Positions 1,367-19,828 of a stretch of 24,000 nt of DNA are shown piece after piece. Within the stretch, counting starts at the first letter, position 1. Every line of letters begins with the position of its first letter. Source of the DNA: Candidatus Paracaedibacteraceae bacterium (GTDB lineage Bacteria > Pseudomonadota > Alphaproteobacteria > Paracaedibacterales > Paracaedibacteraceae); NCBI GenBank assembly GCA_019459505.1, contig JAIBEV010000132.1, positions 263,559-287,558 on the forward strand, written 5' to 3'. The notes beneath the pieces are model-generated. The model was not told the DNA's origin. It saw only the letters and a program-made list of their open reading frames with translations, and made no database searches. Position numbers and translations under genes: made by a program.

Positions 1367-2310
1367 CCTTAAAGGCTCCTAAATTCTGGCAAAAAAAAGG
1401 CTTGTTGAGCCTTATTTTATCGCCGCTCGGTTGGCTTTATGGGCAGATTGTGGCATGGCGTTTAAGAAGTCATAAGAATAAGGTGAGTGTGCCGGTTATC
1501 TGTGTGGGCAATCTAACGCTGGGTGGGGCGGGTAAAACTCCCGTGGTCATTGCTTTGGCGCAAGAGTTTCAGCGGTTAGGGCATACACCTCATATTTTAA
1601 GTCGAGGGTATGGCGGCAAAGGTTATCAAGTTTTAAGGGTTGAGACGACACAACAGACGGCAGCTGAGGTAGGTGACGAGGCTTTGCTTTTAGCGGAGAT
1701 TGCTCCGACATGGGTGGGCGCGGATCGATATCAATCGGCTCAGGCGGCGGTAGCAGCGGGTGCAACCCTGCTCATTATGGATGATGGACTCCAAAGCCCA
1801 ACTTTATATCAAGACTTTAAAATAGCAGTTTTTGATGGGCAAATCCCGTTCTTCAATAAAAGGATTTTTCCGGCTGGTCCCTTACGCGAAGATTTTTCGA
1901 AAGGGCTGCAGCGTATTGACTATTTGGTTTTAAATAATTTTAAAGATATTCCAAGCTGGGCTGTTAAATTACCCTGTACGCTAGCAACCACCCTTTCCGA
2001 TCAAATACCCACGAAAGAACGATATTTAGCTTTTGCCGGAATCGGATATCCTGAAAAGTTTTATTGGCTGCTTGCAAAGAAGGGGTTCAATATTATTGAA
2101 ACGCACTCATTTGCTGATCATCATTTTTATTCTAATCAAGAGATAAATGAGTTAATTCAAAAAGCGAAAAAGATCAAAGCCCATCTTATCACAACAGAAA
2201 AAGACTTGGTAAAAATCCCAAAAGATGCTAAAAAAAATATTCAGTCTTTAAAAATCCGCTTAGAGGCTGATCTTACTGAAATAGTTAATAAAGTGTTAAA
2301 ATTTTTTTAA
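1363..2310 (+). CDS. lpxK: tetraacyldisaccharide 4'-kinase
   Basis: 315-aa ORF. The P-loop VGNLTLGGAGKTP matches the LpxK signature (VGNLTVGGxGKTP). It is translationally coupled to waaA. Confidence 0.9.
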   Translation: MTLKAPKFWQKKGLLSLILSPLGWLYGQIVAWRLRSHKNKVSVPVICVGNLTLGGAGKTPVVIALAQEFQRLGHTPHILSRGYGGKGYQVLRVETTQQTAAEVGDEALLLAEIAPTWVGADRYQSAQAAVAAGATLLIMDDGLQSPTLYQDFKIAVFDGQIPFFNKRIFPAGPLREDFSKGLQRIDYLVLNNFKDIPSWAVKLPCTLATTLSDQIPTKERYLAFAGIGYPEKFYWLLAKKGFNIIETHSFADHHFYSNQEINELIQKAKKIKAHLITTEKDLVKIPKDAKKNIQSLKIRLEADLTEIVNKVLKFF

Positions 2311-2373
2311 CTATTTGTTAACCAAAATTAAAGAATAATTAATTATAACCATCAAAACTGTTTTGGTCAGACT

Positions 2374-3168
2374 ATGAATATCCTCGAAAAAGAAATGTTA
2401 TCGCTGTTAAAAAATGGTAAGAATACATTTGGATTCACCCATGTTCGTGCTGAATTTGAATCTGAAGGAATTCGCGATGATGAACTTTTCCGATTGGTTG
2501 AATTAGCATTTCGTGCCGATTTAAATTTGATTATTAAAATCGGAGGATGTGAAGCCATGACGGATCTCCTCAAAGCAAAGCAATTGGGAGCCGCCACGAT
2601 TATTGCCCCGATGATTGAATCATCCTATGCTGTTTGTAAATTTATTCAATCGGCAGAGCGGGTTTATTCCGAACAAGAACGCTCGGATGTGGAATTATTT
2701 ATCAATATTGAAACGATTCAAGGGTATGAGCAACGCGAAGCAATCACCGAAAAAATTGTTAAGCATAATTTAAAAGGGATTGTTTTTGGCCGTATTGATT
2801 TTTGTGGCTCTTTAGGAATAAGTCGTCGTGAGGTTAATAAGCCAGAAATCACGCGCCGAATCAAAGATGTAGCTAGCCTTTGCCAAACTAAAAACTTGCA
2901 ATTTACGGTGGGGGGCGGCATCGATGCTGAAAGCGTTTCAACTCTTCGGGACATTGCAGCCTCTTATTTGACACGCTATGAAACCCGCAAAGTTGGGTTC
3001 GATCTTTCCACCTTGTCCCATACCTTAGCTCAACAGGGCTTGATCGAAGCCTCTCGTTTCGAATTGCTGTGGCTGAGAAACAAATGTAACTACTATAAAA
3101 TCATTAGTACAGAGGATCAAAATCGTCTAAAAATGCTAGAAAGACGGATTATTTCCTTAGCCGCGTAA
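2374..3168 (+). CDS. HpcH/HpaI-like aldolase, PEP/pyruvate-binding TIM-barrel superfamily (tentative)
   Basis: 264-aa ORF with no competing frame. The APMIESSYA segment resembles the PMVE(S/T) motif of HpcH/HpaI/citrate-lyase-beta enzymes. The family assignment is by eye only. Confidence 0.45.
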   Translation: MNILEKEMLSLLKNGKNTFGFTHVRAEFESEGIRDDELFRLVELAFRADLNLIIKIGGCEAMTDLLKAKQLGAATIIAPMIESSYAVCKFIQSAERVYSEQERSDVELFINIETIQGYEQREAITEKIVKHNLKGIVFGRIDFCGSLGISRREVNKPEITRRIKDVASLCQTKNLQFTVGGGIDAESVSTLRDIAASYLTRYETRKVGFDLSTLSHTLAQQGLIEASRFELLWLRNKCNYYKIISTEDQNRLKMLERRIISLAA

Positions 3169-3199
3169 GAAATCTCTTGAGAGAAAGACGGCAACTCTT

Positions 3200-3697
3200 C
3201 TAAAGGGCTTTATTGTTTTTAACCCGCACATAATAAGCACCCTGTCCCCCATGCTGATCCTTTGCCGTGCTATAACCCGTGGCTAAAGGCATTTCTTCAA
3301 GCCATTGAGGGACAAGCTTTCTCAAGGTGTTTGGATTATCAGGATGCCCTTTACCCGTAATCACTAGAACCCACGTAAGATGATCATGATGCGCCATGGC
3401 GATAAATTTTTGCAGACGTTGTTGAGCCTGTTCGCGGGTCTGACCATGTAAGTCAAGACGTGCCTCCACCATAACCTTGCCGACCTTATGAATTTTCTTT
3501 ATTTCTTTATGCCAGTGTGTTTCGGCAAGGAGAGGTTGACTATGGAGATCAAAATATTCTCGCATCCGCCGCTGGTTGATTTTTACAGCGTCGACAGAGG
3601 ATAAGGGCTTTTCAAGATGAGGTGGGCGATGTTTAAGGGGTTTTATCCCCTTAATCAGTTCTTTCCATAAATGGCTATCTTTAGGGGGGTTTTTCAT
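3200..3697 (-). CDS. Smr/MutS2-C domain protein
   Basis: 165-aa ORF. The C-terminal LDLHGQTREQA...VLVITGKG is the Smr domain signature. It starts 5 nt downstream of the mltA stop on the same strand. Confidence 0.85.
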   Translation of the reverse strand: MKNPPKDSHLWKELIKGIKPLKHRPPHLEKPLSSVDAVKINQRRMREYFDLHSQPLLAETHWHKEIKKIHKVGKVMVEARLDLHGQTREQAQQRLQKFIAMAHHDHLTWVLVITGKGHPDNPNTLRKLVPQWLEEMPLATGYSTAKDQHGGQGAYYVRVKNNKAL

Positions 3698-3702
3698 GCT
3701 AT

Positions 3703-4929
3703 CTATCGCGGAAGAAAAACGTATAAATAACCTTTGGCATTCATGGCGCCTGCATAAGTAGCGGCTATGCTGCCGCTCCCCCAGAAATAATCCCCGCGAA
3801 CCGCCCCTTTAATTGCGCCGCCGGTATCTTGAGCCACCATCAATTTTTTGAGGTGGGGTTTATGATGATCAGGGTGAGTTGCATCGAGCCACACGGGCGT
3901 CCCTAAACTAATAAAAGACCGATCAATGGCCATGCTCCGATGCGGTGTTAAGGGAACACCATGGCTGCCGATAGGGCCACCTGGTTTATTGTTGACCTTA
4001 AAAAAGACATAGGATTGATTTTGCGACATGATTGATTCAGCTTGACGTGGATGAGCATGAAGCCATTTCTTAATGTTTTGCATGGTGATATGTCCATGCT
4101 GCAATACCCCTTTATCTAATAAAGCCTTTCCAATGGGGAAATACGGATAGCCATTTTGACCGGCATAACCTAATCTTATCTCACGGCCGTTATCTAATCG
4201 AACCCGACCTGATCCTTGGATTTGAATGAAAAAAGCTTCGACGGGATCATCGACCCAGACTAGTTCTAGCCCTTTTCCTTTTAAGGCACCCTTGATAATT
4301 CTGGAGCGTGGAATTTTATAATTTATCCCTCTGCCCGGCAATTTATATAAAGGGGTTTGATATTTACCATGCCGTCTTAAAGACCCATTTAAAATTGGTT
4401 CATAATAGCCTGTAAACACACCCTCAGCATTGCCGGAGGCGGCAATTTGATAAGGAGAAACGGTTGCTTCGAGAAAATCACGGAATTGTTGGTGAGATTT
4501 AAAGTTATTGGAGTGCAGCTTTTTACAAAATCTAAACCAGTCCTCGGCCCGTCCGCTACCATCTGCCCGCGTTACCATCGGTGTACCCGCAGATTTTTTT
4601 AGAATGACGTGACAGGATTGCTGGAGAGCTGGTAGGGCTAACAATTGCTTATCTTCCTTCCAGCCTGGTAAGGAGGAAAAGGATACAGGTGTGAGTTCAC
4701 GCTCGATTTGAGGGGCACATCCAGCAAATAGTAATAGGATTCCATACCCTAACAAATTAAGAAGGGAAATGGGTGACCTTTCCCAGGGAATCATCTTTTT
4801 CCCTGAGGTTTCTTTTCGGTCTAAGAGCGTTAGAAAGGGTGGAATACTCTTAATAGCCTGAAAAAATTTGTAAAGCAAAATTCTAGTCTCTTTAGAGAGT
4901 CGGGCGATAAGAAAGATATTTTTATTCAT
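3703..4929 (-). CDS. mltA: membrane-bound lytic murein transglycosylase A
   Basis: 408-aa ORF. The C-terminal 3D-domain motif VAQDTGGAIKGAVRGDYFWGSG is present. A lipoprotein-like signal (LLLFAGC) begins at Met46, so the true start may be the ATG at 4794. Confidence 0.85.
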   Translation of the reverse strand: MNKNIFLIARLSKETRILLYKFFQAIKSIPPFLTLLDRKETSGKKMIPWERSPISLLNLLGYGILLLFAGCAPQIERELTPVSFSSLPGWKEDKQLLALPALQQSCHVILKKSAGTPMVTRADGSGRAEDWFRFCKKLHSNNFKSHQQFRDFLEATVSPYQIAASGNAEGVFTGYYEPILNGSLRRHGKYQTPLYKLPGRGINYKIPRSRIIKGALKGKGLELVWVDDPVEAFFIQIQGSGRVRLDNGREIRLGYAGQNGYPYFPIGKALLDKGVLQHGHITMQNIKKWLHAHPRQAESIMSQNQSYVFFKVNNKPGGPIGSHGVPLTPHRSMAIDRSFISLGTPVWLDATHPDHHKPHLKKLMVAQDTGGAIKGAVRGDYFWGSGSIAATYAGAMNAKGYLYVFLPR

Positions 4930-4956
4930 AAGGATCCTTGATCTCTACGATGGTCC

Positions 4957-5640
4957 TTAAGCGTTTTGTGTGCGACTTAAATACCAGTTTGGTTCAGTAG
5001 ATCCAATCATCCGTGTAAATGTCCAAATTTCGGTGACTGGAATACTTATTTGTGCCTGATTTTCAATAATCTCACCAGCAGAATTTTTTGTCACCATCAC
5101 CTGACGGCTTCGGAATCGAACTGTTATAATGGCATCTTCACCATGGATTTCGATCGCATCCACATCGACGCGATCAAATTGCTCTATCGTGACTTCATAC
5201 GATTCTCCGCGACGCTGACGCTCAGCAACTTCGTGGGCGAACGCCTCATAAACTTTTGGCAATAAAAGTAATTTAAGAGTCTCTAGTTCTCCCTTTGCAA
5301 AAGCTTCAGAAACCATTTCATAGGCCCCTTTGGCTCCCTTAAGAAAATGAGAAAAATTAAAGCTTGGATCACTTTCTCTCAAAATTCTTAGACCTTCACG
5401 CACACCGGGTTTTAAATCTTCTTCTTCAATCTCCATGGATCGTTCTTTACTGCGACGGGTCTGCAAGGGAACAACATTATCGTCAATCATAGCTTCAAAT
5501 TGACGTTTTTTTTGTTCTCGTCGTTCTTTGTCTGCGTCAGTTTCTTGGCCTAGAACGGACCACAATCGATAAAAGATATAAGCGGACAATAGTGCAAAAA
5601 ATATTAATTCCAATAGGGGACCCACTTCTTTATGCCTCAA
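4957..5640 (-). CDS. Tim44-like domain protein
   Basis: 227-aa ORF with one N-terminal TM helix, a charged linker and a C-terminal domain typical of alphaproteobacterial Tim44-like proteins. It lies divergent from secB and upstream of mltA, a common alphaproteobacterial layout. Confidence 0.8.
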   Translation of the reverse strand: MRHKEVGPLLELIFFALLSAYIFYRLWSVLGQETDADKERREQKKRQFEAMIDDNVVPLQTRRSKERSMEIEEEDLKPGVREGLRILRESDPSFNFSHFLKGAKGAYEMVSEAFAKGELETLKLLLLPKVYEAFAHEVAERQRRGESYEVTIEQFDRVDVDAIEIHGEDAIITVRFRSRQVMVTKNSAGEIIENQAQISIPVTEIWTFTRMIGSTEPNWYLSRTQNA

Positions 5641-5672
5641 AATACTAAATCTAAGTATATATTATAGTAGAC

Positions 5673-5704
5673 GACCTAGAGTTGCAATTGGTAGACTCTA
5701 GATC
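5673..5704. promoter_or_regulatory. imperfect inverted repeat in the divergent Tim44-like/secB intergenic region (possible operator)
   Basis: gacctagagt (5673-5682) and actctagatc (5695-5704) are reverse complements at 9 of 10 positions, separated by 12 nt. Confidence 0.2.
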
Positions 5705-5736
5705 AGAAACTTAATAATTATTAGGAGACCTCTGTT

Positions 5737-6201
5737 ATGGCTCAACTAAATTCTGCAGCTCCCACTGCAACAACAACGGTTCGTGCTCAATATATTCGAG
5801 ATTTATCGTTTGAAAATCCAAACCCTTTGGCAATTTTTACCAGTGAAACTCAAGATCAACCAGAAATCTCAGTTGGTATCCAAGCCAAAGCCCAAAACTT
5901 AGGTGAGAGAAATTTTGAACTTATTATCGACTTTAATGTAGACGCAAAACGCGGCAAGGACACAATGTTTATTGTTGAATTGAGCTATGGCGCCGTTGTA
6001 AGTGTTGAGGAGTCTGTTGCGGAAGACCTGGTGCAGCATGCTGTTATGGTTGATGCCGCGCACTTATTATTTCCATTTGCTCGTAATATCATTGCAGATA
6101 TGACACGGGATGGGGGATACCCACCATTGATGTTAGCCCCAATTGATTTTAATAGCTTATATCAGCAACAAGCCGAACAAGCTCCTATAGCAGTTAATTA
6201 A
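5737..6201 (+). CDS. secB: protein-export chaperone SecB
   Basis: 154-aa ORF. QYIRDLSFENPN matches the SecB N-terminal motif (IYxKDxSFExPN). The acidic C-terminal tail and a GGAG ribosome-binding site 8 nt upstream support the call. Confidence 0.9.
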   Translation: MAQLNSAAPTATTTVRAQYIRDLSFENPNPLAIFTSETQDQPEISVGIQAKAQNLGERNFELIIDFNVDAKRGKDTMFIVELSYGAVVSVEESVAEDLVQHAVMVDAAHLLFPFARNIIADMTRDGGYPPLMLAPIDFNSLYQQQAEQAPIAVN

Positions 6202-6209
6202 TAAATTAA

Positions 6210-6237
6210 AGGGGCAGAATTTCTGCCTCTTTTTTTT
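6210..6237 (+). terminator. Rho-independent terminator after secB
   Basis: The stem aggggcag/ctgcctct (8 bp including one G-U pair) has a 5-nt loop and is followed by a T run of seven or more, 9 nt after the secB stop. Confidence 0.75.
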
Positions 6238-6298
6238 AGCTATACCCTCTTTGCTATTGTTTTTCTAAACTAAATATGGCGACTACCATTTTCAAAAA

Positions 6299-7516
6299 AT
6301 GACGACATTATCTAATAAAAATATTTATAGCCTGCCGATTATTCTTGTGTTGGCGACAATAGTTTTTGAAATGTCATCCGACCTTTATTTACCGAGTCTC
6401 CCTGAAATGGCGATTTTTTATGGTGTTCCCCATCATACAATTGTCATGACAATTAGTACGTATATGATTGGTTTTTCTTTGATGGGATTGGTGGGAGGCG
6501 CCTTATCAGACAGTTTAGGGCGAAAACCTGTCTTTATGCTGGGAATGGGAATCTTTGTTATCGGTAGTATTGGTTGTTATTTTGCTTTTGATATTTATTT
6601 TCTCACCCTTTCACGATTAGTCCAAGGCATGGGCGCCGGAATCAGTTATGTGATTTCAACCGCAATGATTAAGGATAGGTTTTCCGATCATTTGTGCTCG
6701 CGTCTTTTTTCATTAATGGGAACAGCCATTGCTTTATCTCCTACGGTCGCTCCTATTATTGGCAGTAAAATCAGTGCCTGGTGGGGGTGGAGTTTTAATT
6801 TTACAGTTATCCTGGTGGCTGCTGTTCTCACCTATATTATCTGCCGTATTGGATTAATTGAAACTCTTGAGGTATCAAAAAGGCAGGCCCTCAATTTTAA
6901 AACAACATTGAAATCTTATGGTCATCTCTTTTTGAGCCGTAAAACATGCGGATATGCCTTTATTTCTGGCCTGACTTATGGATCGCTGTGGGCCTGGATT
7001 GCTGTCGCTCCTTTTTTCTTTATTGAAAGGATTGGAATTTCTGCAGCAGACTATGCCTATTATGCCACGATTGGTCCTCTTTCTTATATGACTGGCGCTT
7101 TTTTAAACCAATTTCTTGTCATGCGCTTAGGGGTAGATCAACTCTTGAAGATAGGCCTGACGATTATTACAGTCGGTAGTTTTTACTTAAACTTTATTAG
7201 CTTTAGCCATGGTTTAAATAAAGAGGGTTTGATCATTGGACTCATTTTGTTCTGTGTGGGTCTTGCGCCTGTGTTTTCTAATGCGGCCACCAGAAGTTTG
7301 GATGTGCCCCCTCATCAACGGGGGGCGGCTTCTGCTGTTTTAGGATTGGTTGAAATGATTTTAGCTGCTGTTTATGCTTATGGGGCGAGTTTGTTTAATG
7401 ATGGCAGCATGCGATCGGCGACAGTCATGATGGGTGGAAGTGCCTTTTTATGCATTCTGCTATACATTTGGATCCAACAAAGTATAAAATACTTACATAA
7501 AACATCTGCAAGGTAA
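6299..7516 (+). CDS. MFS transporter, Bcr/CflA-type drug efflux family
   Basis: 405-aa ORF with about 12 hydrophobic segments. The MFS loop motif GGALSDSLGRKPV lies between TM2 and TM3, and LPSLPEMA is the Bcr-like N-terminus. Confidence 0.8.
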   Translation: MTTLSNKNIYSLPIILVLATIVFEMSSDLYLPSLPEMAIFYGVPHHTIVMTISTYMIGFSLMGLVGGALSDSLGRKPVFMLGMGIFVIGSIGCYFAFDIYFLTLSRLVQGMGAGISYVISTAMIKDRFSDHLCSRLFSLMGTAIALSPTVAPIIGSKISAWWGWSFNFTVILVAAVLTYIICRIGLIETLEVSKRQALNFKTTLKSYGHLFLSRKTCGYAFISGLTYGSLWAWIAVAPFFFIERIGISAADYAYYATIGPLSYMTGAFLNQFLVMRLGVDQLLKIGLTIITVGSFYLNFISFSHGLNKEGLIIGLILFCVGLAPVFSNAATRSLDVPPHQRGAASAVLGLVEMILAAVYAYGASLFNDGSMRSATVMMGGSAFLCILLYIWIQQSIKYLHKTSAR

Positions 7517-7527
7517 TTCATTTATTC

Positions 7528-8868
7528 ATGACCGCCCCATCTCCGACTCGAGTGTTTGGTTTTTGGACCGCAACTTCATTAGTCCTTGGCAATATGATTG
7601 GTTCAGGTATTTTTTACTTGCCCGCATCCTTAGCGCATGTTGGACCCATTAGTATTCTTGGTTGGGTCATAACGGCTGTGGGAGCTATCAGCTTAGCCTA
7701 TGTTTTCTCTAACCTATCGCGTCACAATCCTCAAGCGGGGGGGCCCTTTAGCCATACCCGCCAAGCCTTTGGCGATCAAATGGGATTTTTTATGGCCTGG
7801 GGCTATTGGATCATGACGTGGTCAAGTAATGCTGCCGTTTCCCTTGCCTTTGTTAGTTATTTATCTCACTTTGTGCCCCTTTTAGCTGAATCTAAACTCG
7901 CCAGTTTTAGCATGGCAACCTGTTTAATTTGGTTTACCACCTTCTTAAATTGCCGCAATTTAAAATACGGTGGGTTTGTCCAAGTTTTAACAGTTATTAT
8001 TAAAATCTTACCGCTAATCGTGGTTGCTCTGGTTGGGTGGTATTTTGTCGAACCGCAAAATTATGTTCCTTTTAATCCTAATTTTGAAAGCCCGTTCAGT
8101 GCTATTAATGCAGCCGCTGCCATTACGATGTGGGCTTTTATCGGGCTGGAATCGGCAACCGTACCCGCTGAAAATGTAGAAAATCCTGGCAAGACTATTT
8201 CCAGAGCAACATTATTTGGCACCTTGTTAGGGGCTTTAATTTATATTATAATTACAGCGGTTGTTTTTGGACTTATCCCGGCCGACGAATTGGCTCATTC
8301 CCCTGCCCCTTTTGTTGATGCAGCCTCCAAAATTTTTGGTAGTTGGGTCGGCCCTATTATTGGCTTTTGTGTATTGATCTCTATCTTTGGCGGCTTAAAT
8401 GGTTGGGTTCTTTTACAAGGACAAATTCCCTATACGTTGTCTAAAGAAGGATTATTTCCCAAAGTTTTTAGTAAATTATCGGCCAATGGCACCCCAGTTT
8501 TTGGTCTTGTTTTTACGAGTGTTCTGATGACGGTGTTGATGTCTATGAATTATAGTAAATCGTTAGTTTCCCAGTTCAATAATATGATTCTTATTGGAAC
8601 AATTATGACCTTGGGAACCTATTTGTCGTCCACCCTAGCTTCCCTCAAACTGCTCAAACACTCCTATATTGTAAAATTAAAACCTGCAATCCTTATAGCC
8701 ATTTTCTTAGGGGCTGCTTATTGTGTATGGGCGATTTTGGGGGCAAGTCTTGACGATTTGGCGATTTGCTTTATTGCTTATGTTTGCGGTATTCCAGTCT
8801 ATATTTATAGCCGGTGGGAACACCGCAGAATAAGTCGACGAGGCTATACTGTTACATCTGCCCGCTGA
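7528..8868 (+). CDS. APC-superfamily amino acid permease, basic amino acid/polyamine antiporter-like
   Basis: 446-aa polytopic ORF. The N-terminus LVLGNMIGSGIFYLPASLA...AGGPFSHTRQAFG resembles AdiC/PotE/ArcD-type antiporters. Confidence 0.85.
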   Translation: MTAPSPTRVFGFWTATSLVLGNMIGSGIFYLPASLAHVGPISILGWVITAVGAISLAYVFSNLSRHNPQAGGPFSHTRQAFGDQMGFFMAWGYWIMTWSSNAAVSLAFVSYLSHFVPLLAESKLASFSMATCLIWFTTFLNCRNLKYGGFVQVLTVIIKILPLIVVALVGWYFVEPQNYVPFNPNFESPFSAINAAAAITMWAFIGLESATVPAENVENPGKTISRATLFGTLLGALIYIIITAVVFGLIPADELAHSPAPFVDAASKIFGSWVGPIIGFCVLISIFGGLNGWVLLQGQIPYTLSKEGLFPKVFSKLSANGTPVFGLVFTSVLMTVLMSMNYSKSLVSQFNNMILIGTIMTLGTYLSSTLASLKLLKHSYIVKLKPAILIAIFLGAAYCVWAILGASLDDLAICFIAYVCGIPVYIYSRWEHRRISRRGYTVTSAR

Positions 8869-8869
8869 C
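8771..8869. repeat. left copy of a ~100-bp imperfect direct repeat (the functional 3' end of the permease gene)
   Basis: It aligns with 11620-11722. Identical blocks are tgcggtattccagtctatatttata, gccggtgggaacaccgcaga, aggctatactgttacat and cccgctgac. Differences are a 3-nt indel, a 1-nt indel and a handful of substitutions. Confidence 0.85.
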
Positions 8870-9315
8870 TGCATAAGATTAAGTTATCTCCCATAATTCA
8901 TAAGGCAGAAAAGATTTCCCATAAAGAGGATTCTCTTAATTTTGTCCTATCAACAGTCATCGCTATTAAAGTAAGAGTTCCCCTGTACAGAGAGAGGTTT
9001 AATATTGGGATAAAAGAGTTAAAAATCCTGTTGTCTTTCCACAATATAATGATATTTCTCGGTTATGAGAAGAAGAGGGGTGGCTAACTCATGCTTATTA
9101 TCATGGGGTTATCCAGGCGGGAATAAAGATGGTTATGGATTAAAGCTACTCCTCTGTGGACCTTTAAATAGGAGTAAATTTAAAAATTGACTCTATTATT
9201 TCAGGCAAAGTTCTCATTTTCAAAATATTTTTTATGTTCCTTGTAAAGATAACAAACTATTCCCACCTTGTGCTTATAAGCCATCTTTTTTACTTAAGAT
9301 TCCAAGAGGAAAGCT

Positions 9316-11496
9316 ATGACAATACTAAGAGCAAAATTTATCTCTTCATTATCCTTTTTAATTTTAGGAGGAGCTCCTTCTCTTTGTTTAGGAATGGATG
9401 CACCTCATTTAGATAATATGAAGCCAGACTTACAAGTTGCTGTTAATCCGGAAAAAGATCGATTGACAAAGCAATTCCTAATTTTAGCATTATCTGTGCC
9501 ACCGACTGAGGAAGCGAGTGTTTTAGGGAATTTAGAGATACAGGCTTATCCAGAGATAGACAACAAGTATTTAAATTATTTTGACCAAGACTTAATGCGT
9601 ATCGATGAGTTTAAACAGTATTGTATAGAACCTTTAAAACTTATAATAAATTCTCCTGACTTAATAAATAAAATTAGTCCAGAATTATTAGGTAGCTATG
9701 CGGATCTCATTGATCAAAAATTTACTAAACATTTTATTTATTTAATTAATCTTGTAGAGGATAATCCCAAAAAATCACATTTATCAATTGCTTTCTCAAA
9801 ACTTTTTTTTGTTAGCCTTGTAAATTTTTGCCGTAAAGATGTATGCGATTTTAAGAAAATAACATATTTTCCGAGTAAAATATTTTTTCCTATGATAAAT
9901 AACAGTGTATCATTTGTACAATTTCTTTTGGTACGAAATCATATAAATAAACTCTATAATTATATTTACACGAGGGGGGTAACAAGAAAATCCTTAAACG
10001 CAAAAGACTATTATGATTATTTAGATGAGATTCAAAAAGATTTTAATCATACATTTAATTTTACGGAAGATTTCGGGCGTAGTTACAAAAAGAAACGTCC
10101 AAAGCCTGAGCATCCACAAAAGCACTATGTTGAAAATAAAAGACCAAGAGTTGACGATGCTCGGCCTGTTCCACAAGTACAAGATATTCAAGCAGTGCCG
10201 CCAGCACCAGACAAACCTAGGAAGAAGCGTTTTATGGATGAGATAAGGGAAATGGTTGGTCAAATATTAAAGAGTCATTATGAAGTGCCTGCTCCGGCTA
10301 CTCCTCCAGCACCAGCTGAAGCGGTGCTTCAAGAGATTCCCAATCCTCAAGTTCCTCAAGCAGGTGCGTTTCAATATGGGCCGAAGCCACCAGCACCTCA
10401 GCCAGTTGTCCCTCCGCAAGGTAACATTAATCCAGTAATACACCATCCTTTTGGCTTCCCACAGGTTATGAATCCACAAGCTCCTCAACCAGGTGCGTTG
10501 CAACATGTACTGAAGCCGCCAGTGCTCCCACACCTCGCCTTTCAAAGAGGCCAAGCTCCTTTAGCTCCACAAGGAGTAGTCATCCAAGGTGATCCAAAGC
10601 CCTCTGAACCCGCAAGACAAATTGCAGTCGTGAAAAGATTACGAACCCGCGAAGGATATACATATTTTAAAAATAATACCGGTGCTATTTTTTATGGGGA
10701 TCTAACACAAGCTAGAAGTGCAACTCATGAGCAACGCCAAAAATTAACTGAAATTTTTAACCAACTTATCGAGTTACGTTTTAATAAACAAATTAATGAA
10801 GAAAATTACAAAATTGCTTATGGTGTTCTAGAAGTTATTGGGACTGCCATAAAAGAAAACCGACAAATTTGTAAGGAGCTTTTCAAGAAATTTTCAGAAA
10901 ATCATCAAAATTATATACAGTATAGCCTAGAGCCTCGGGTTGTTATTCATTGTGAACAAAGGGATATGCCCGCCCAAGATAGAACATTTGCTGTTTATAA
11001 TACTTTGGCTTTAGCCTATGGATTTGCGGTGGAAAGTAATATTGTACAAGACTTTTTTACTCATGCATTTTTGGACGATTTATCGGGTTTTGGCTGTCTT
11101 GACGGTGCTCAGAAAATTTTATTAAATTGGCTTGAAGCAAATATGGAAAAAATTGAAAGAGTGAAAAATAAGGAAATTAAAGAAACAGTTATAACAGATA
11201 GTTCAATTTTTCAAACATTCGCAGAAGTTATCAATGAATCAAAAAATAAGACCATAATTAATGGTTTGGATCACTTAACTTATAACCAATATATGGAAAA
11301 ATTGAAAGCAGAGCAGAGTTTCCAACAGCTAGAAAAAGAGAAACAGAATATACAAATCATGAGGGCTGAAGAGATATTCTACGGTGAATTAGAAGAGAAT
11401 ATTAGAGTTAACGTTCTGGAAAAACTGCTCAATTTGAAATATGAGGTTGACATTGAAGCTATAGAAAGATGTTGGACTATTTTAAGAGGAGAATAA
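9316..11496 (+). CDS. orphan secreted proline-rich protein (candidate host-targeted effector)
   Basis: 726-aa ORF with the ribosome-binding site AGAGGA 5-6 nt upstream. The N-terminus MTILRAKFISSLSFLILGGAPSLCLG looks like a Sec signal peptide. Flanking domains are AT-rich and the core is P/Q-rich. No family recognised. Confidence 0.8.
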   Translation: MTILRAKFISSLSFLILGGAPSLCLGMDAPHLDNMKPDLQVAVNPEKDRLTKQFLILALSVPPTEEASVLGNLEIQAYPEIDNKYLNYFDQDLMRIDEFKQYCIEPLKLIINSPDLINKISPELLGSYADLIDQKFTKHFIYLINLVEDNPKKSHLSIAFSKLFFVSLVNFCRKDVCDFKKITYFPSKIFFPMINNSVSFVQFLLVRNHINKLYNYIYTRGVTRKSLNAKDYYDYLDEIQKDFNHTFNFTEDFGRSYKKKRPKPEHPQKHYVENKRPRVDDARPVPQVQDIQAVPPAPDKPRKKRFMDEIREMVGQILKSHYEVPAPATPPAPAEAVLQEIPNPQVPQAGAFQYGPKPPAPQPVVPPQGNINPVIHHPFGFPQVMNPQAPQPGALQHVLKPPVLPHLAFQRGQAPLAPQGVVIQGDPKPSEPARQIAVVKRLRTREGYTYFKNNTGAIFYGDLTQARSATHEQRQKLTEIFNQLIELRFNKQINEENYKIAYGVLEVIGTAIKENRQICKELFKKFSENHQNYIQYSLEPRVVIHCEQRDMPAQDRTFAVYNTLALAYGFAVESNIVQDFFTHAFLDDLSGFGCLDGAQKILLNWLEANMEKIERVKNKEIKETVITDSSIFQTFAEVINESKNKTIINGLDHLTYNQYMEKLKAEQSFQQLEKEKQNIQIMRAEEIFYGELEENIRVNVLEKLLNLKYEVDIEAIERCWTILRGE
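10342..10527 (+). repeat. intragenic duplication, period about 129 bp (43 aa), in the Pro-rich core
   Basis: aatcctcaagttcctcaagcaggtgcgtttcaatatgggccgaagccacc (from 10342) matches aatccacaagctcctcaaccaggtgcgttgcaacatgtactgaagccgcc (from 10471). At protein level NPQVPQAGAFQYGPKPP matches NPQAPQPGALQHVLKPP. Confidence 0.7.
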
Positions 11497-11619
11497 GGTT
11501 ACTTCTTTAACTTTTAAGTTTAAAAGCATGTTGACCTGGTTATCCGGAGGGCCTCCTTACCCCTCCTAAATTAAGATTGGTTAATCTTGTGGGGTAAAGA
11601 GATCGAAAGTTTTCAAGCT

Positions 11620-11722
11620 TTATCGCTTATGACTGCGGTATTCCAGTCTATATTTATAATAGCCGGTGGGAACACCGCAGAGTAAGGTCGAAGAGGCTAT
11701 ACTGTTACATGCGCCCGCTGAC
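11620..11722. repeat. right copy of the direct repeat (decayed, displaced duplicate of the permease 3' end)
   Basis: It would encode CGIPVYIYNSRWEHRRV..., compared with CGIPVYIYSRWEHRRI... in the intact gene, before a 1-nt indel breaks the frame. It also supplies the last codons and stop of the convergent MFS gene. Confidence 0.85.
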
Positions 11723-12892
11723 GGATCAGCGTAAAGTACACCCCACTCATCGTTACGGCTACGGCTAAAAAGAACAGCGGCATTGGCAGTAATGTGTCAT
11801 TATGCAAGAGTCCCATTAAAAATGTGGTTCCTGAAATGATGACATAGTACATGAATCCAAATAAAGCCGAAGCAGTCCCTACGACGGCTTGATAATTCCC
11901 TAAAGCCATACTAAGGCTGCTGAGAATAGTCAAGTTAATGCCCATTATCACAATCAGCATGGCGCCTAACGTTGTGAAAAGAATTAGTCCTTTAGCCTTA
12001 CCTAAGGTTAAGATGGCGCCTCCGAAAATCAAGGTTCCTAGCAAAATTAGGGTTAAGCCTCTTTTTATAATCTCCTCACCCGAGAAAGTTTTAAACATAT
12101 GACGCCCTATTAATCCCGCAACTGCAGCTGCCAGCGCTATTAATATAAAAGTTAATCCATACTGAGAAGGAGTTAACCCTAACATCTTAATCATGTAAAA
12201 GGGGGCTTCAGCATAATAACTAAAAATAATTCCATTTCCTAAGCCAATGAGACCGCAGAAACCCATCACATGCTTGTCCTTTATCAAGGTTTTCCAGACT
12301 ATAAAAATTGAAAGTTCCTTTTCCCCTTATTGACGTTGGTCTCGGGTAAATTTGTTCTGCATAGGCTTAAAATTAGGAAGCCAGCCCCTAAAAGAAACAA
12401 GAAAATAGAAGACCAGTCAAAGGTCTGAGTAATAAGTCCGCCAATAATAGGGCCAATAGCGGGTGCCAACGGTAAAGCGCTTCCAATTGTGGAAAAAACA
12501 CGTCCTCGATCATGTGCTGAGAAGGCCTCACGACAGATCGCCTGTACTAATACACTGCCTGCACTTCCACCTAATGCTTGGATAAAGCGGGCAAGCATCA
12601 AGGTTTCAATAGAGGTTGATAGATAGCATCCTAAGCAGCTGATACAATAGATTAATAGGCCACTTAAGAGACACGGTTTGCGACCGAATCGATCGGAGCT
12701 ATAGCCCCAAAAAATAGTCCCGATAGCAAATCCAAGGAGGTAAATTGTTAGAGTAAATTCTACCCAATGCTCTTCTACGCTCAGTGCATGAGCAATCTGA
12801 GGCAGCGAGGGAGTATAAACGGTTTCTGAAAGTTGGGGTAAGCCAATGATACATATCAGCAACCACAAGGCTGGTGCTTTTAAATTCAACAT
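11697..12892 (-). pseudogene. frameshifted Bcr/CflA-type MFS transporter (paralog of 6299-7516)
   Basis: Two adjacent same-strand ORFs of 197 and 196 aa sit in different frames, and each equals one six-helix MFS half. The N-half carries SSDRFGRKP. The downstream frame stays open upstream of its nominal TTG start (..SIFIVWKTLIKDKHVMG). The frame switch falls at an A5/T5 run at 12302-12306. Confidence 0.6.
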
Positions 12893-13299
12893 GATAAAAA
12901 TCCTATTTGTTCAATACGATACAGCATCTGCTTTATTCTAAGGACAAAGCAGGGTTTGACTTCTCAAGAGAAGAAAAACTGGGTATCTATCGGACGGCTA
13001 GAATAATTTTCAGGGAACTACTTTCTTTTTAAATGTCTTCTTAAAAATAGTGAGCTTATTACAGAATATCAATATATTTTCGCGAAAATTTAAACTTATA
13101 TAAAAAATCCCGTCTCAAAGCTTATTAAATAATTATTTAAGGCTATTATTTTGATAGACCGTGGGGACGCTCAATCATTCCTAGAATCTTATTCTTACAG
13201 TGGGAAATTACTATCTTGAAATAAGACTTTGAAAATTTATTAATTAACAGATTAAACTATAAAAAAGTGTTGAAACTTTTATGGTGACAACATAAATAT

Positions 13300-14229
13300 T
13301 TGATATATCAGCTAAGAATATTTTCAGAAGTGGGCATTGAAATCGTGGACGTGGGGCGACTTTTATTACTGTTAGACCAATTAAGGTTGCCCATTCTTGT
13401 TGCGCTTGGCATTCTCTTCTTTCTCTTATTAATTGTCCAAGCTCGCCGGCGTTATTGGGTTCTTTTATTGGTCTTTTCGGCAGTTATTGTTAGTCCCCTC
13501 CTGTCGCATTGGCAGCTGCATTATGATGAATTTCAACCGGTTACATTACCGCTGCGGCTAATGCATCAAAATTGCTGGGGGGATAATCCCGATACGGATG
13601 CTATTTTTAAGCAGATTTGCCTTGAAAATCCAGATGTAGTTATGCTGCAAGAATGTACTCCTGCTCTCTATTGGCGCATCAGAAAGGAATTAGGATCCTT
13701 AGGCTATGCTGTATCTTCGGATTTTGAGAATTATGATCCCACACATCATCATCGTTATAATCGATTGGTCATTTTGACAAAGGGATTTAAAGTTTTGAAA
13801 CGCTATAAGCTTAAGAATTATCCTGTTTTTGTGATCCATGCTCGTTCTTTTAAGACGGGCGAGCTTTATCGTTTTGTTAGCGTTCATTTGGAGAGATGCT
13901 ATAATATTGAAGAAAACTATTATCAAAATATTGCAGATCAATTAGGAGAGTTTAAAGGGAAAACGATCCTGTCTGGCGATTTTAATCTCGTTCCCTGGTC
14001 AAGATACTATATCAGTTTTTGTCAGATGTTAGGATTAAAGGATGGCTTAAAAGGACAAGGACTTATTGCCAGTTTTCCAGCTCCTCAAAACAAAAAAGCA
14101 GCTTATAAAGCGCCTGCTTTCTTGCCAATTGATCGTCTATTGGTTTCTCCAACGATTCGCACCAAGCGAGTGGATCGACTTCCCTCTTTGGGATCCGATC
14201 ATTATGGTTTTATTGCCCATATCTCTTAA
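13300..14229 (+). CDS. membrane-anchored endonuclease/exonuclease/phosphatase (EEP) family protein
   Basis: 309-aa ORF with two N-terminal hydrophobic helices. MLQECTP, the motif GDFNLVPWS and the C-terminal GSDHYGF are typical EEP catalytic motifs. The start is uncertain because the nominal start is TTG and in-frame GTG codons follow. Confidence 0.7.
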   Translation: MIYQLRIFSEVGIEIVDVGRLLLLLDQLRLPILVALGILFFLLLIVQARRRYWVLLLVFSAVIVSPLLSHWQLHYDEFQPVTLPLRLMHQNCWGDNPDTDAIFKQICLENPDVVMLQECTPALYWRIRKELGSLGYAVSSDFENYDPTHHHRYNRLVILTKGFKVLKRYKLKNYPVFVIHARSFKTGELYRFVSVHLERCYNIEENYYQNIADQLGEFKGKTILSGDFNLVPWSRYYISFCQMLGLKDGLKGQGLIASFPAPQNKKAAYKAPAFLPIDRLLVSPTIRTKRVDRLPSLGSDHYGFIAHIS

Positions 14230-14273
14230 GTTAAAGATATCCCCTTACATCCGTAAATTTTATAAAAAGGGCG

Positions 14274-15557
14274 TTAGAGGCGAATAATGCGATACCCAAT
14301 AGCGTCCATTTCTTTTCTGTCAAGGCAGCTTTTCACATCAATAACAACAGACTGAGGGGCTAATAACTTAGCGGGCTCTCTGGTGAGGTGTTCCATCAGT
14401 GAGGTGTGCGCGACAGCTAAAATTGTTAAATCCGCCGGTTTTATAGCTTCAAGGCCCATTAACTGAATATCATATTCGTGCTTAGCTTCTGCTGCATCAG
14501 CTTCTGGGTCACAAATCTGATAAGAAACCCCATAGCTATCTAATTCAGCTAAGATATCCACAACCTTTGTATTGCGAATATCAGGGCAGTTTTCTTTGAA
14601 GGTAAGACCTAAAATGGAAATTACAGAATCCTTAGGGTTTTTACCGGTTTGAATTAAGGCTTTGATTGCTTCCCGGGCCACATGTTGACCCATGCCATTA
14701 TTGAGGTGACGTCCTGCTAAGATCATTTGGGGATTATAGCCTACCTCTTGAGCCTTATGGGCCAGATAATAAGGATCCACACCAATGCAATGCCCCCCAA
14801 CCAAACCTGGGCGGAAGGGCAAGAAATTCCATTTAGTACCGGCGGCCTCTAAGACATCTACCGTATCAATATCAAGGCGATTAAAAATTAAAGCCAATTC
14901 ATTCATCAAAGCAATATTAATATCGCGTTGGGTATTTTCAATAACTTTAGCTGCCTCTGCTACTTTGATGGTTGCTGCTTTGAAGATACCAGCCGTTACC
15001 ACAGAGCCATAAACATCCGCAATAATGTCTAAGGTGGCTTGATCGGAGCCTGAGACAACCTTCGTAATTTTAGTGAAAGTTTTTTCCTTATCCCCCGGAT
15101 TAATCCGCTCCGGGCTATAACCAGCAGTAAAATCTACGCCATACGTTAGACCAGAAACTTTTTCAAGAATGGGAATACAAATTTCCTCGGTAGCCCCAGG
15201 ATAAACGGTGGATTCATAGACAACAATATCACCTTTTTTTAAGGCTGACCCCACAGTTTGGGATGCCTTTTCAAGAGGGGTAAAATCAGGTTGATTAACA
15301 TGGTTAACAGGGGTGGGGACGGTCACAATGTGAAAATCAGCCTGAGCTAAATCTTTCACATCACTTGTAAAAATAATATCGCTTGCTTGAAGATCTTCAG
15401 GCTCGACCTCGCGGGTCCGATCATGTCCTTGACGCAATTCATCAAGACGGGTTTGATTAATATCAAAACCAATGGTGGTATGCTTTTTACCAAAAGCCAC
15501 AGCAACCGGCAATCCTACATAACCTAATCCGATAACAGAAATTCGACGCAGCGTCAT
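14274..15557 (-). CDS. nucleotide-sugar dehydrogenase, TviB/WbpO-like (UDP-N-acetylhexosamine 6-dehydrogenase type)
   Basis: 427-aa ORF. The Rossmann motif VIGLGYVGLP is present. VYESTVYPG, AKVIENTQRDINIALMNEL and the catalytic GGHCIGVDPYYL closely follow my recollection of TviB/WbpO. Confidence 0.85.
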   Translation of the reverse strand: MTLRRISVIGLGYVGLPVAVAFGKKHTTIGFDINQTRLDELRQGHDRTREVEPEDLQASDIIFTSDVKDLAQADFHIVTVPTPVNHVNQPDFTPLEKASQTVGSALKKGDIVVYESTVYPGATEEICIPILEKVSGLTYGVDFTAGYSPERINPGDKEKTFTKITKVVSGSDQATLDIIADVYGSVVTAGIFKAATIKVAEAAKVIENTQRDINIALMNELALIFNRLDIDTVDVLEAAGTKWNFLPFRPGLVGGHCIGVDPYYLAHKAQEVGYNPQMILAGRHLNNGMGQHVAREAIKALIQTGKNPKDSVISILGLTFKENCPDIRNTKVVDILAELDSYGVSYQICDPEADAAEAKHEYDIQLMGLEAIKPADLTILAVAHTSLMEHLTREPAKLLAPQSVVIDVKSCLDRKEMDAIGYRIIRL

Positions 15558-16132
15558 CTTAAGTCCTTATTGAGTATAAATATCTTTTCTGGGGTTACAA
15601 TATAATCCATTGGGTAATCCTTATCACAAACAGGAATATTGTCAAGTTGTTGACAGTCATAACCGACCCCAATGGCTATAATATTCTTACTCAGGCTTCT
15701 ATCATAATATCCTTTACCTTGTCCTAAACGATTTCCCCTGGCATCAAAACCAAGCAAGGGAACTAACGCAATGTGCGGCGTTAAAGGAACCTCGTGGGAA
15801 GGTGCAGAGAACAATTGGCTGTTTGTGGAAGTGGTGGAAATCGGTGACCAAGCAATAAAATCAAGTTGACATGTTGGGGTTAATTGGGGGACGCAAACCA
15901 CATGGCCTTGGTTATACAAATAGGCCATCAGTGCGAGGATATTAAGTTCAGATCCCCTGGGCACATAGCCAGCAATAATTTGAGAGGATTTTAGCGGTAT
16001 AACTCTCCTTAGCTCTTGCCACTGCTTAAGCAATTTCTGATCGATATCAGTCTGGACAATCAGGGCATGATAGTTCTGTCGACGCTGGCGTAACAAAGGA
16101 CGTAAAGCTTGTTTTGCGATTTCTACTCCCAT
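15554..16132 (-). CDS. 5-formyltetrahydrofolate cyclo-ligase
   Basis: 192-aa ORF. GFDARGNRLGQGKGYYDRSL is the MTHFS signature. Its stop overlaps the dehydrogenase start by 4 nt (ATGA). Confidence 0.85.
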   Translation of the reverse strand: MGVEIAKQALRPLLRQRRQNYHALIVQTDIDQKLLKQWQELRRVIPLKSSQIIAGYVPRGSELNILALMAYLYNQGHVVCVPQLTPTCQLDFIAWSPISTTSTNSQLFSAPSHEVPLTPHIALVPLLGFDARGNRLGQGKGYYDRSLSKNIIAIGVGYDCQQLDNIPVCDKDYPMDYIVTPEKIFILNKDLR

Positions 16133-16995
16133 GTTATGGTCCCCCCCAGTTCCGAGTGAGAGGGAAAAGTGGATGAGGTGGGGGGCGAAGGTTGAGGCGA
16201 TGGGGGAGAAACTGTAGAAGTTTGCGGTAGAGCCTGTCGCTGAGGCCTTACGGCATGAGGCGGCGTTGGAGAAACAGCGGGGGTTGTACGCTGCGGTGGC
16301 TGACGAGACTCTTCAGTACAGGGATTCTTAGCATGCAAGGCCATGAAATTGTCACGGGTTATCCAGTAAATTTGATGGTCAAAGTCAGGAGCTTGGCCTT
16401 CGACAAAAGTTAACCTGCCTTGACTATTTTTAGTCTCTGCTCCCTGAGCAGGGAGGCGACTACCAGTGTCTGTTAAAGCTCCCCCCCCTTTTTTACCATG
16501 GCTAATTAAAATGAAAGCTAAAGGATCTTCTTTCTCTTCCACAATATTTTGATTGGTAAAAAGATTTTGAAGTTTGATAATGTGCGCCGAAATCTTGCAG
16601 AAGTATTCACTACTGCCATCATTTGTTCTCGCTTGAGTCTTTGTCAAAGTTGGATGGACGGCAAAGGTAAACCAATTTCCATAGCCATCTTTGGCAGTTT
16701 TTTCTGGAAGCCCCAGCGTTGTAAAAGGGACAAACCCCACACAGTGAGTATGGTTTTCACAGTTCTTATTAGCTTTACCATTGGACGACGGGGCGGGGGC
16801 AGGGAGGCGATGGTATTGTAACACATATGCTGCTAAAGCAGCCACAATTTGTTCCTCGTGGTTGTGTGTCGTTTTTTGTTGATTAAGGCGATGCTGTACC
16901 GTGAGGAGGGGGATGGTCATGCTTGCAACGATACCCATAATGATCAAAGCAATTGAAATTTCAATTAAACTGAAAGCAGATAAACGGCGTGTCAT
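16123..16995 (-). CDS. prepilin-type N-terminal cleavage/methylation domain protein (pseudopilin-like) with a Pro-rich C-terminal tail
   Basis: 290-aa ORF. The N-terminus RRLSA|FSLIEISIALIIMGIVA fits the class III signal, with Phe at +1, Glu at +5 and a hydrophobic helix. DGYGNWFTF loosely recalls the GspG DPWGNPY motif. The tail is SPTPPHAVRPQRQALPQTSTVSPPSPQPSPPTSS. Confidence 0.7.
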   Translation of the reverse strand: MTRRLSAFSLIEISIALIIMGIVASMTIPLLTVQHRLNQQKTTHNHEEQIVAALAAYVLQYHRLPAPAPSSNGKANKNCENHTHCVGFVPFTTLGLPEKTAKDGYGNWFTFAVHPTLTKTQARTNDGSSEYFCKISAHIIKLQNLFTNQNIVEEKEDPLAFILISHGKKGGGALTDTGSRLPAQGAETKNSQGRLTFVEGQAPDFDHQIYWITRDNFMALHAKNPCTEESRQPPQRTTPAVSPTPPHAVRPQRQALPQTSTVSPPSPQPSPPTSSTFPSHSELGGTITWE

Positions 16996-17609
16996 CGGGG
17001 TCCAAATAAAGCAGTACCAAGTCTGATTCTAGTGCTACCACATTTAATGGCGGTCTCATAGTCTTGAGACATACCCATACTCAAGATTTTTAAATGATGC
17101 TCTTGTGCTATATTTTTCAGTTTTCCAAAGTAGGGGCGTGGATCTTGGCCCGCCGGTGGAATGCCCATAAGGCCGTGGATAGGCAAGTTTTTATTTTTAC
17201 AGTATTGATAAAGATCAGAAAAATCGCTTGGAAGAACACCCGTTTTTTGAGGCTCCTCCCCAATATTGATTTGAATGAGAAATTCTTGGGTTCTGACAGT
17301 CGGTAAGGATAAATTTTTTATCAAAGCATCCACTAATGTTAGACGATCAATCACTTCGATGCTATGAAATAATTCGACTGCTTGTTTTACTTTATTGCTT
17401 TGCAGATGGCCAATAAGATGAAGCTGACACGTGGGAAATTCGGCCAATAAAGTCGGCCATTTTTCTTGCGCTTCTTGGACTCGATTTTCGCCAAATAGAC
17501 GATATCCCTGCTCGATAAGAGGGCGGATTTTTTCAATCCTTTGGGCTTTGCTAACAGCCATAATCTCTATAGGTAAAGATGTTAACAAGCCGGCAGCATT
17601 AAGTTGCAT
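16992..17609 (-). CDS. yggS: YggS-family pyridoxal-phosphate homeostasis protein
   Basis: 205-aa ORF. AVSKAQ (the PLP lysine) and FGENRVQEA are YggS signatures. Confidence 0.9.
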   Translation of the reverse strand: MQLNAAGLLTSLPIEIMAVSKAQRIEKIRPLIEQGYRLFGENRVQEAQEKWPTLLAEFPTCQLHLIGHLQSNKVKQAVELFHSIEVIDRLTLVDALIKNLSLPTVRTQEFLIQINIGEEPQKTGVLPSDFSDLYQYCKNKNLPIHGLMGIPPAGQDPRPYFGKLKNIAQEHHLKILSMGMSQDYETAIKCGSTRIRLGTALFGPR

Positions 17610-18106: not shown

Positions 18107-18140
18107 GGTCTCATCACCTTTCTGTCAAAAAATTTCAAGT

Positions 18141-18420: not shown

Positions 18421-18633
18421 ATTGTTTATCGTCATAGTCAGTTACCTGACACCTATAAAATAGGCCTTTTTTCTAAAAAATAAAAGGGGAAAGACTAAAA
18501 ATATTATTGGTCCTTTAAAATTCTTTTGATGTTTATTTGTCACAGGTTTTAAGAATTTGTTAAGCATTAACCATTTATTAACTTTTATAACCATAGAGTT
18601 AAGATAAGTCAGTGTTTTTCAGGGGAGAGGTTA

Positions 18634-19752: not shown

Positions 19753-19828
<76 letters not shown>

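Follow-up and report, generated by a model that had tools for sequence, protein, structure and literature searches.

A repeated permease gene end as the probable scar of a duplication and loss that swapped two neighbouring genes in a Paracaedibacteraceae bacterium

A stretch of 24,000 nt from the genome of a Candidatus Paracaedibacteraceae bacterium (assembly GCA_019459505.1, contig JAIBEV010000132.1, positions 263,559 to 287,558; hereafter the window, and its lineage W) contains an imperfect direct repeat of the 3' end of a gene for an APC-family permease (P). The two copies bracket a gene for a 726-aa protein (O), and the right copy (p') adjoins a convergent gene for an MFS transporter (M). 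Comparison with related genomes indicates that the repeat is very probably a scar left at the boundary of a segment whose duplication and subsequent partial loss made two neighbouring genes change places. Gene order and a gene relic show that a segment made up of p', M, and the region upstream of M was duplicated to a site downstream of O, and that the source copy of M was then lost. The relocated segment is the right-hand block at 11617-13078, i.e., p', M, and ~190 nt of M upstream sequence, and not, as an earlier sequence-only reading of the window had proposed, a 2.75-kb segment inserted into the permease 3' end.

Three loci serve throughout for comparison: L001, an independent ENA contig from a lineage with ~85% identical DNA that spans P-O-repeat-M; L087, from Ca. 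Odyssella acanthamoebae (CP008941.1); and L088, a JGI contig, which together with L087 represents the closest sister clade of W/L001. The features of the locus, in window coordinates, are listed below, where EEP stands for endonuclease/exonuclease/phosphatase superfamily.

7528-8868, + strand: P, an intact APC-family permease of 446 aa (basic amino acid/polyamine antiporter-like), from its open reading frame (ORF) and Pfam/NCBIfam matches
8768-8869, + strand: left repeat, the functional P 3' end (last 33 codons, stop, and 1 further nt)
8877-8997, - strand: relic of the original M copy, homologous to M codons ~261-301, from local alignment to L087 M (7674-7793)
8998-9315, no strand: O upstream region, which was the right part of the spacer between M and O in the ancestor, from blastn and alignment to L087 8764-9089
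9316-11496, + strand: O, a 726-aa protein with a hydrophobic N-terminus, a proline-rich middle, and a conserved helical C-terminal domain (aa ~445-720)
11497-11616, no strand: O downstream region up to junction J2 (between 11616 and 11617), from weak alignment to the O-EEP intergenic region of L087/L088
11617-11722, + strand: right repeat p', a non-functional copy of the P end and the left end of the relocated block
11697-12892, - strand: M, a Bcr/CflA-type MFS transporter gene, the surviving relocated copy, frameshifted near 12310-12320, from two ORFs and tblastn against an intact orthologue
12893-13078, no strand: M upstream region, relocated together with M and corresponding to the left part of the ancestral spacer between M and O, from blastn to L087 up to 8706
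13079-13233, no strand: junction J3 filler of 155 nt between the relocated block and the EEP upstream region, 66% identical in the L001 lineage
13234-14229, + strand: EEP upstream region and EEP-family gene (13300-14229), the right syntenic anchor, from Pfam Exo_endo_phos and collinearity with L087 and L088

The sequence-only reading had described the repeat as ~100 bp long and imperfect, and alignment confirms this. The copies at 8768-8869 and 11617-11722 are in direct orientation and identical at 95 of 102 positions, with exact common blocks of 25, 23, and 18 nt; relative to the left copy, the right copy has 7 substitutions, a 3-nt insertion (ATA), and a 1-nt insertion (G). Identity ends 1 nt past the permease stop codon (TGAC). 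The observation that the right copy has lost the permease frame yet supplies the stop of the MFS gene also holds: p' is out of frame for P, and the convergent M ends within it, with its last 8 codons and stop (11697-11699). Between the repeats lie 446 nt of non-coding DNA, the O ORF, and a further 120 nt of non-coding DNA, and a scan of this segment found the lower GC content that had been anticipated (~35% vs ~42% in the flanks).

We found no sign that the repeat is a dispersed element, an explanation that had been raised for it. Its 23-nt core occurs twice in the window, compared with 0 occurrences expected from 100 shuffles, and a scan of public metagenome and viral collections matched only the related contig L001. 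In L001 the repeat extends over 96 nt without indels, and p' reaches ~157 nt before the P stop with three small internal deletions, which places the original duplication boundary ~160 nt inside P. Because L001 has the same layout, and because the Logan contig L002 matches the window over P and the beginning of O, an assembly artefact can be dismissed as the source of the arrangement.

Related genomes reveal the order from which this locus derives, although sampling is sparse, with nine related loci retrieved; L093-L095 were reached through the EEP protein cluster. P and M are convergent, overlap by 4-25 nt, and have no O between them in six related lineages, i.e., L003 (Ca. Odyssella thessalonicensis), L089/L090, L091, L092, L087, and L088. 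All six have the order Tim44-SecB-MFS-P followed directly by the convergent M, and P orthologues, 84-92% identical at the amino acid level, lie in this SecB-MFS-P context in relatives. The convergent, overlapping permease/MFS layout that had been deduced from the window as ancestral is therefore seen directly. The synteny comparison suggested along with that deduction bore it out only in part: permease and MFS gene are indeed convergent without an insert in six lineages, but the supposed insert is a resident neighbour in the sister clade.

The genes of L087 are arranged as P-M-O-EEP-UDPGDH (UDP-glucose dehydrogenase), the right part matching the genes beyond M in the window. L088 agrees with L087 in this order except for a deletion from the 5' half of M to O residue 655. 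W and L001 instead have the order P-O-p'M-EEP. By blastn, window positions 1546-8869 correspond to L087 8-7345, positions 8999-11498 (O upstream region and O) to 8764-11153, positions 11617-13078 (P end, M, and M upstream region) to 7244-8706, and positions from 13234 onward to 11402 onward, with L088 collinear from 8500. For four flanking genes, synonymous divergence (dS) is ~0.55-0.67 between W and L001, ~0.4-0.5 between L087 and L088, and ~0.6-1.6 (typically ~1) between the two pairs, while other lineages are saturated. Since these values give the topology ((W, L001), (L087, L088)), P-M-O-EEP is the ancestral order and P-O-p'M-EEP the derived one. A further contig, L094, extends L001: the two share an end overlap of 248 nt at 100% identity, and L094 then runs on through M, EEP, and UDPGDH, collinear with window positions 11842-17513 and lacking a second O before EEP. 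Both lineages thus carry all three junctions, which dates the rearrangement before the W/L001 split. That the repeat marks a rearrangement junction, as the sequence-only reading had held, is upheld by these comparisons.

The original copy of M has left a trace where the ancestral order places it. A tract of 129 nt separates the P stop from the region of O-upstream homology, and within it lies a sequence that aligns in the same orientation with M of L087 at 81 of 114 positions (71%). The alignment has a z score of 9.6 against mononucleotide shuffles and 9.1 against dinucleotide shuffles, a score reached by 0 of 300-500 shuffles. The L001 copy of this relic aligns with the same L087 coordinates (z = 9.5) and, at the homologous place, with W's own M (z = 7.3). 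A first pass with stricter scoring against W's own M had yielded a z of 1.5; softer scoring against the intact M of L087 detected the relic. As the relic has the ancestral position and orientation, the stretch P-relic-O is the ancestral locus minus M, with nothing inserted. The missing parts of M point to at least two deletions, corresponding to L087 7346-7673 and 7794-8763. In the adjoining O upstream region, 120 nt at 9006-9125 are missing from L001 (at ~4316) and present in L087, and are therefore ancestral sequence deleted in L001.

Two small features of the intergenic regions were also noted. The O downstream region of the window, compared with L001, has 48 nt of its own that include the palindrome GGAGGGCCTCC (~11533-11580). 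The M-O intergenic region of L087 contains a perfect 20-nt tandem duplication (8747-8786), near the breakpoint used in the window lineage.

From these data the following history can be proposed. The ancestor would have carried P and M tail to tail with an overlap of 25 nt, followed by O and EEP, both in the orientation of P. In the common ancestor of W and L001, a block reaching from ~160 nt before the end of P, through all of M, to ~190 nt upstream of M would have been copied to a position ~120 nt downstream of O. This may have happened by tandem duplication of the p'-M-O block, with the first M and the second O deleted later, i.e., the tandem duplication-random loss (TDRL) scheme, or by a one-step copy-insertion of p' and M followed by deletion of the first M. 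We regard the two routes as equally possible; given that a relic of the second O was not found, they are not told apart. The original M beside P would then have been destroyed by at least two deletions, the first beginning right after the P stop, to leave the 120-nt relic and the final order P-relic-O-p'-M-EEP. That the first deletion begins exactly where it does is accounted for by selection, because P cannot lose its stop, and p' would have been retained because M needs the overlapped 25 nt (its last 8 codons and stop). M would subsequently have been broken separately in W, by a frameshift, and in the L001 lineage, by a TGG to TGA change. Finally, ~2.8 kb (~8768-11535) would have been exchanged by homologous recombination between the W and L001 lineages, as their divergence suggests.

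The locus has several features that TDRL leaves: adjacent genes are swapped with their orientations kept (P-M-O-EEP in L087/L088 vs P-O-M-EEP in W/L001), and a partial copy of the gene cut by the boundary is present (p' at 11617-11722). Of the remnants of lost copies that TDRL would leave, one of M occurs at the predicted place (z ~9), whereas 13079-13233 shows none for a second O (z 0-2.7). Several observations nevertheless weigh against a history of duplication and loss. An intermediate with two copies of M was not found among the nine related loci, and the J3 filler at 13079-13233 yielded no convincing relic of a second O, neither the O block nor intergenic DNA of L087 matching it significantly (z 0-2.7). 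The breakpoints in the M-O intergenic region nearly abut (L087 ~8706 and ~8764), a pattern more easily explained by one cut than by two independent deletions. The two copies in L001 are separated by 8 synonymous changes and 1 non-synonymous change, to which neutral decay is a poor fit (p ~0.004-0.02); an extra assumption is therefore needed, namely conversion from the native left copy before the exchange between lineages. The search for recombinases, moreover, covers 24 kb of the genome.

Divergence along the locus bears on what happened after the rearrangement. Identity between the repeat copies is 93% in W and 91% in L001, as against 71% for the relic/M pair that stems from the same event (Fisher p = 4e-5 and 5e-4, respectively). 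This difference points to gene conversion from the functional P end or to constraint, and p' has probably been kept similar to the P end by conversion. Between W and L001, the left repeat shows only 3 differences, all synonymous, and mismatches thin out at ~8760-8790, from 28 in 150 nt to 3 in 110 nt. Identity between the two lineages is 0.85 at O third positions and 0.84 in the non-coding DNA of the O block, vs 0.70-0.735 at third positions of the flanks and 0.66 in the J3 filler. Likewise, dS for O is 0.21 between W and L001 vs 0.63-0.64 to L087, as compared to ~0.6 vs 0.6-1.3 (typically ~1) for the flanks. Later homologous exchange between the lineages would explain why the block at ~8768-11535 is under-diverged, and would provide the simplest account of the substitutions in the L001 right copy: this copy may have been converted by its native left copy, whose place was later taken by a W-like tract. 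For the 8 synonymous changes and 1 non-synonymous change observed, conversion with subsequent neutral decay gives p ~0.004.

Divergence is uneven elsewhere in the window too. In contrast to the other genes, which place W with L001, the Tim44-like gene (4957-5640) of W is nearer to that of L087 (dS 0.58) than to that of L001 (0.66), and a 225-nt tract inside the permease (8383-8607) has unusually few differences between W and L001. Such mosaic divergence suggests frequent homologous exchange among these symbiont lineages.

The sequence-only reading had taken the repeats for the attL/attR footprint of an integrative element occupying 8870-11616, perhaps a decayed island or a cargo-only remnant. 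A 2.75-kb element of this type in the permease 3' end, whether a cargo-only remnant or an integrase-less cis-mobilizable form, now appears extremely improbable, even though much of the locus resembles one. The direct repeats end exactly at the stop and the left copy reconstitutes the target gene; the P/M junction is empty in relatives; the intervening segment is lower in GC; W and L001 have diverged less in the left copy and in O than in the flanks, and the change point falls at the left repeat edge; and the right copy of L001 resembles a displaced native coding end. Cis-mobilizable elements (CIMEs), in which attL and attR are retained without integration genes, are furthermore a known category (PMC5704250). 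The footprint interpretation nonetheless fails on O being a resident neighbour at the collinear position in the sister clade and on the M relic lying between P and O, which marks the stretch as ancestral and not as an insert; with P-relic-O collinear with the ancestral locus, neither a decayed island nor a cargo-only remnant is sustained. That the segment lacks an integrase had been correctly recognised: Pfam, NCBIfam, and PHROGs searches of the ORFs of the 24-kb window and of the 446- and 120-nt spacers detected no integrase, transposase, or other gene for recombination or transfer, nor remnants of these. Nor were terminal inverted repeats found at 8870/11616, or any Rfam family, tRNA, or enrichment of promoters or terminators in 8500-12000. 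In the collections scanned, the repeat core occurs at no site beyond the L001 contig. O has no phage or plasmid homologue that we could find, and flanking repeats were absent from the three other O-family loci examined.

A second alternative, that O was the piece that moved, is similarly very unlikely. In it the O block would have left its place to the right of M and entered the P/M junction, by cut-and-paste or as a circle, with duplication of ~100-160 nt of target sequence. Such a move would agree with the presence of O on different sides of M in the sister clades, with the nearly abutting breakpoints in the M-O intergenic region, and with EEP following M without an intervening O in both W and the L001 lineage. 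It predicts clean P/O and O/p'M junctions and a single, intact history of M, yet the M relic sits at its ancestral place and in its ancestral orientation; a target duplication of 100-160 nt is no known product of transposition, and neither a transposase nor inverted repeats were found. The same three points, i.e., the missing transposase, the missing terminal inverted repeats, and the length of the duplication, led us to reject the insertion of a transposon with target-site duplication.

A further scenario is compatible with duplication and loss and would add to it: p', the relic, and O may have looped out as a circle and re-entered the permease end of another lineage by a Campbell-type crossover, which would explain why W and L001 differ so little in precisely this block. 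We consider this unlikely. The low-divergence tract does begin within ~15 nt of the left repeat edge, the O block stands out between W and L001 (identity 0.84-0.85 vs 0.66-0.735 in neutral flanks; O dS 0.21 vs ~0.6 in the flanks, the values to the outgroup being 0.63-0.64 for O and 0.9-1.1 for the flanks), and the right copy of L001 looks like coding sequence over its last 87 nt, with a host-level proportion of synonymous differences (pS ~0.36). However, L001 shares J3 and has no second O, so both lineages already had the derived order and a double-crossover replacement suffices. In addition, ~80 nt of O downstream sequence beside the right repeat are highly diverged, so that the tract stops short of the right repeat, which a circle would have made it reach, and mosaic divergence occurs elsewhere too (permease 8383-8607 and Tim44). 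Independent integration in two lineages, or entry of a circle into an L001 genome with the ancestral order, would suit the synonymous differences of the L001 right copy and the lower dS of O, but is ruled out as the main story by L094, given the shared J3 and the lack of a second O. It is also improbable, if conceivable, that the duplication accidentally made an integrase-free cassette of p', relic, and O, which loops out between the ~100-160-nt permease-end repeats, has these repeats kept by gene conversion, and enters related genomes by homologous (Campbell-type) crossover at the permease 3' end. If true, lineages would receive by this process an intact copy of a rapidly evolving and probably secreted symbiont protein whose orthologues are decaying elsewhere.

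Decay of M has gone further than the frameshift that had been noticed in the window and read as local decay, an assessment with which the relatives agree. In the window M is split over two frames (12892-12299 and 12287-11697) relative to intact orthologues; the frameshift sits in a GGGGAAAAGG run, and an error in the consensus of the metagenome-assembled genome may be an alternative cause. In the L001 lineage, three assemblies have the TGG to TGA nonsense change (L094 at ~nt 830-860, and also L093 and L095). M is intact in five of the six lineages with the ancestral order, the exception being L088, where it (7293-7883) lacks its 5' half. M is therefore inactivated independently in three lineages (W, L001, and L088), besides the deleted original copy, and is evidently dispensable.

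The protein encoded by O had been called a large orphan. This was right in that it has no family assignment: searches of Pfam, NCBIfam, PHROG, PADLOC, and PDB, as well as a profile search, returned no match. It is not a true orphan, as a full HMMER scan found its C-terminal domain (aa ~445-720; nt 10633-11493) in 30 cluster representatives, a few of which also have the N-terminal part. Family members include a 944-aa protein of Ca. O. thessalonicensis encoded at an unrelated locus. The AlphaFold2 model of the domain, with a predicted local distance difference test score of 92.9, has three short strands followed by a helical bundle, and Foldseek matched it to no PDB structure; O thus appears to define an as yet uncharacterised family whose helical domain is predicted with confidence and lacks a fold match in PDB. 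A nearly invariant asparagine and cysteine form an N-x3-C motif in this domain (N515 and C519). In the proline-rich middle, a diverged internal 129-nt repeat is present (10342-10393 and 10471-10522, 83%). O is intact in W and L001, with a dN/dS of ~0.4 between them. Its orthologue in L087 (9090-11151) is frameshifted into ORFs of 170 aa and 484 aa, which are annotated as two hypothetical genes and are 54-55% identical to the window protein over its full length, and in L088 only the last 72 aa remain. Judging by composition, i.e., the hydrophobic N-terminus and proline-rich linker, one might guess that O is a secreted, host-facing protein.

Some genes to the right of the rearranged block are also worth recording. 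The EEP-superfamily protein (13300-14229) has a long hydrophobic N-terminal region and may be a host-directed enzyme. Its gene lies beside that for UDP-glucose dehydrogenase throughout the W/L001/L087/L088 clade and is absent at the locus in more distant relatives; in L092 an EEP gene is found on the opposite side of Tim44. A 290-aa ORF (16123-16995, - strand) belongs to no family and has a weak N-terminal prepilin-type methylation motif (E = 8e-4, below the Pfam cut-off), and a 322-aa ORF (22740-23708, - strand) gave no family match at all. Genes for transfer-messenger RNA (tmRNA) and tRNA are classic integration sites of genomic islands. The window has a tmRNA gene (18122-18465, - strand; permuted and two-piece according to ARAGORN, with the tag ANSNKFASANNNRFGAVASAAA) and a tRNA-Ala(GGC) gene (19753-19828, + strand), which together flank a gene for a voltage-gated-type ion channel (Ion_trans, 18634-19578). 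The channel region flanked in this way is probably resident, as the SspB-channel order recurs in L093.

The process proposed here is of a known kind. TDRL is an established model of gene-order change in animal mitochondrial genomes (PMC5122201, PMC5745709). As there, adjacent genes have swapped order with their orientation kept, outgroups have the ancestral order, a partial gene remains at the duplication boundary (p'), and a decayed remnant lies at the predicted position (the M relic). The present case differs in concerning a bacterial chromosome instead of a mitochondrial genome, in that neither an intermediate with both copies nor a clear relic of the second O was found (nine related loci; 13079-13233), and in that the duplicated gene end stays similar to its source, through conversion or constraint, instead of simply decaying. 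Among elements that target gene 3' ends and bring a replacement end, the insertions of e14 and phage 21 at icd in Escherichia coli are classic examples. Our locus shares with such elements and with CIMEs the imperfect 3'-end repeats around a segment, the intact target, and the displaced copy downstream (PMC5704250). In contrast to them, the bracketed DNA is ancestral and not foreign, the moved block lies outside the supposed element, no recombinase was found in the 24-kb window, and there is neither att architecture nor any other site. A third parallel is offered by effector loci of the Rhs, contact-dependent inhibition (CDI), and type VI secretion (T6SS) systems, where homology-facilitated illegitimate recombination displaces C-termini (PMC5361080). 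There too, the old 3' end is left as a downstream "orphan" fragment, and homology permits later recombination; here, however, both copies encode the same C-terminus, the origin is intragenomic, and neither a new, different 3' end nor toxin/immunity cargo has come from outside.

These findings carry a caution for the search for genomic islands, since a 3'-end repeat around an AT-rich orphan gene mimics attL/attR, yet can arise by intragenomic duplication and loss. Its true origin was revealed only by synteny with close relatives and by a gene relic of 120 nt. The locus provides a cleanly resolved duplication-loss swap in a bacterium, for a process documented mostly in mitochondria. A gene-end copy that is 91-93% identical to its source, while the co-duplicated relic is at 71%, suggests concerted evolution. 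The setting is an amoeba endosymbiont lineage with local gene decay, in which M has been inactivated at least four times and the sister clade has lost O, and the rearrangement is a matter of ordinary reductive genome dynamics, of which it is an unusually well resolved bacterial instance.

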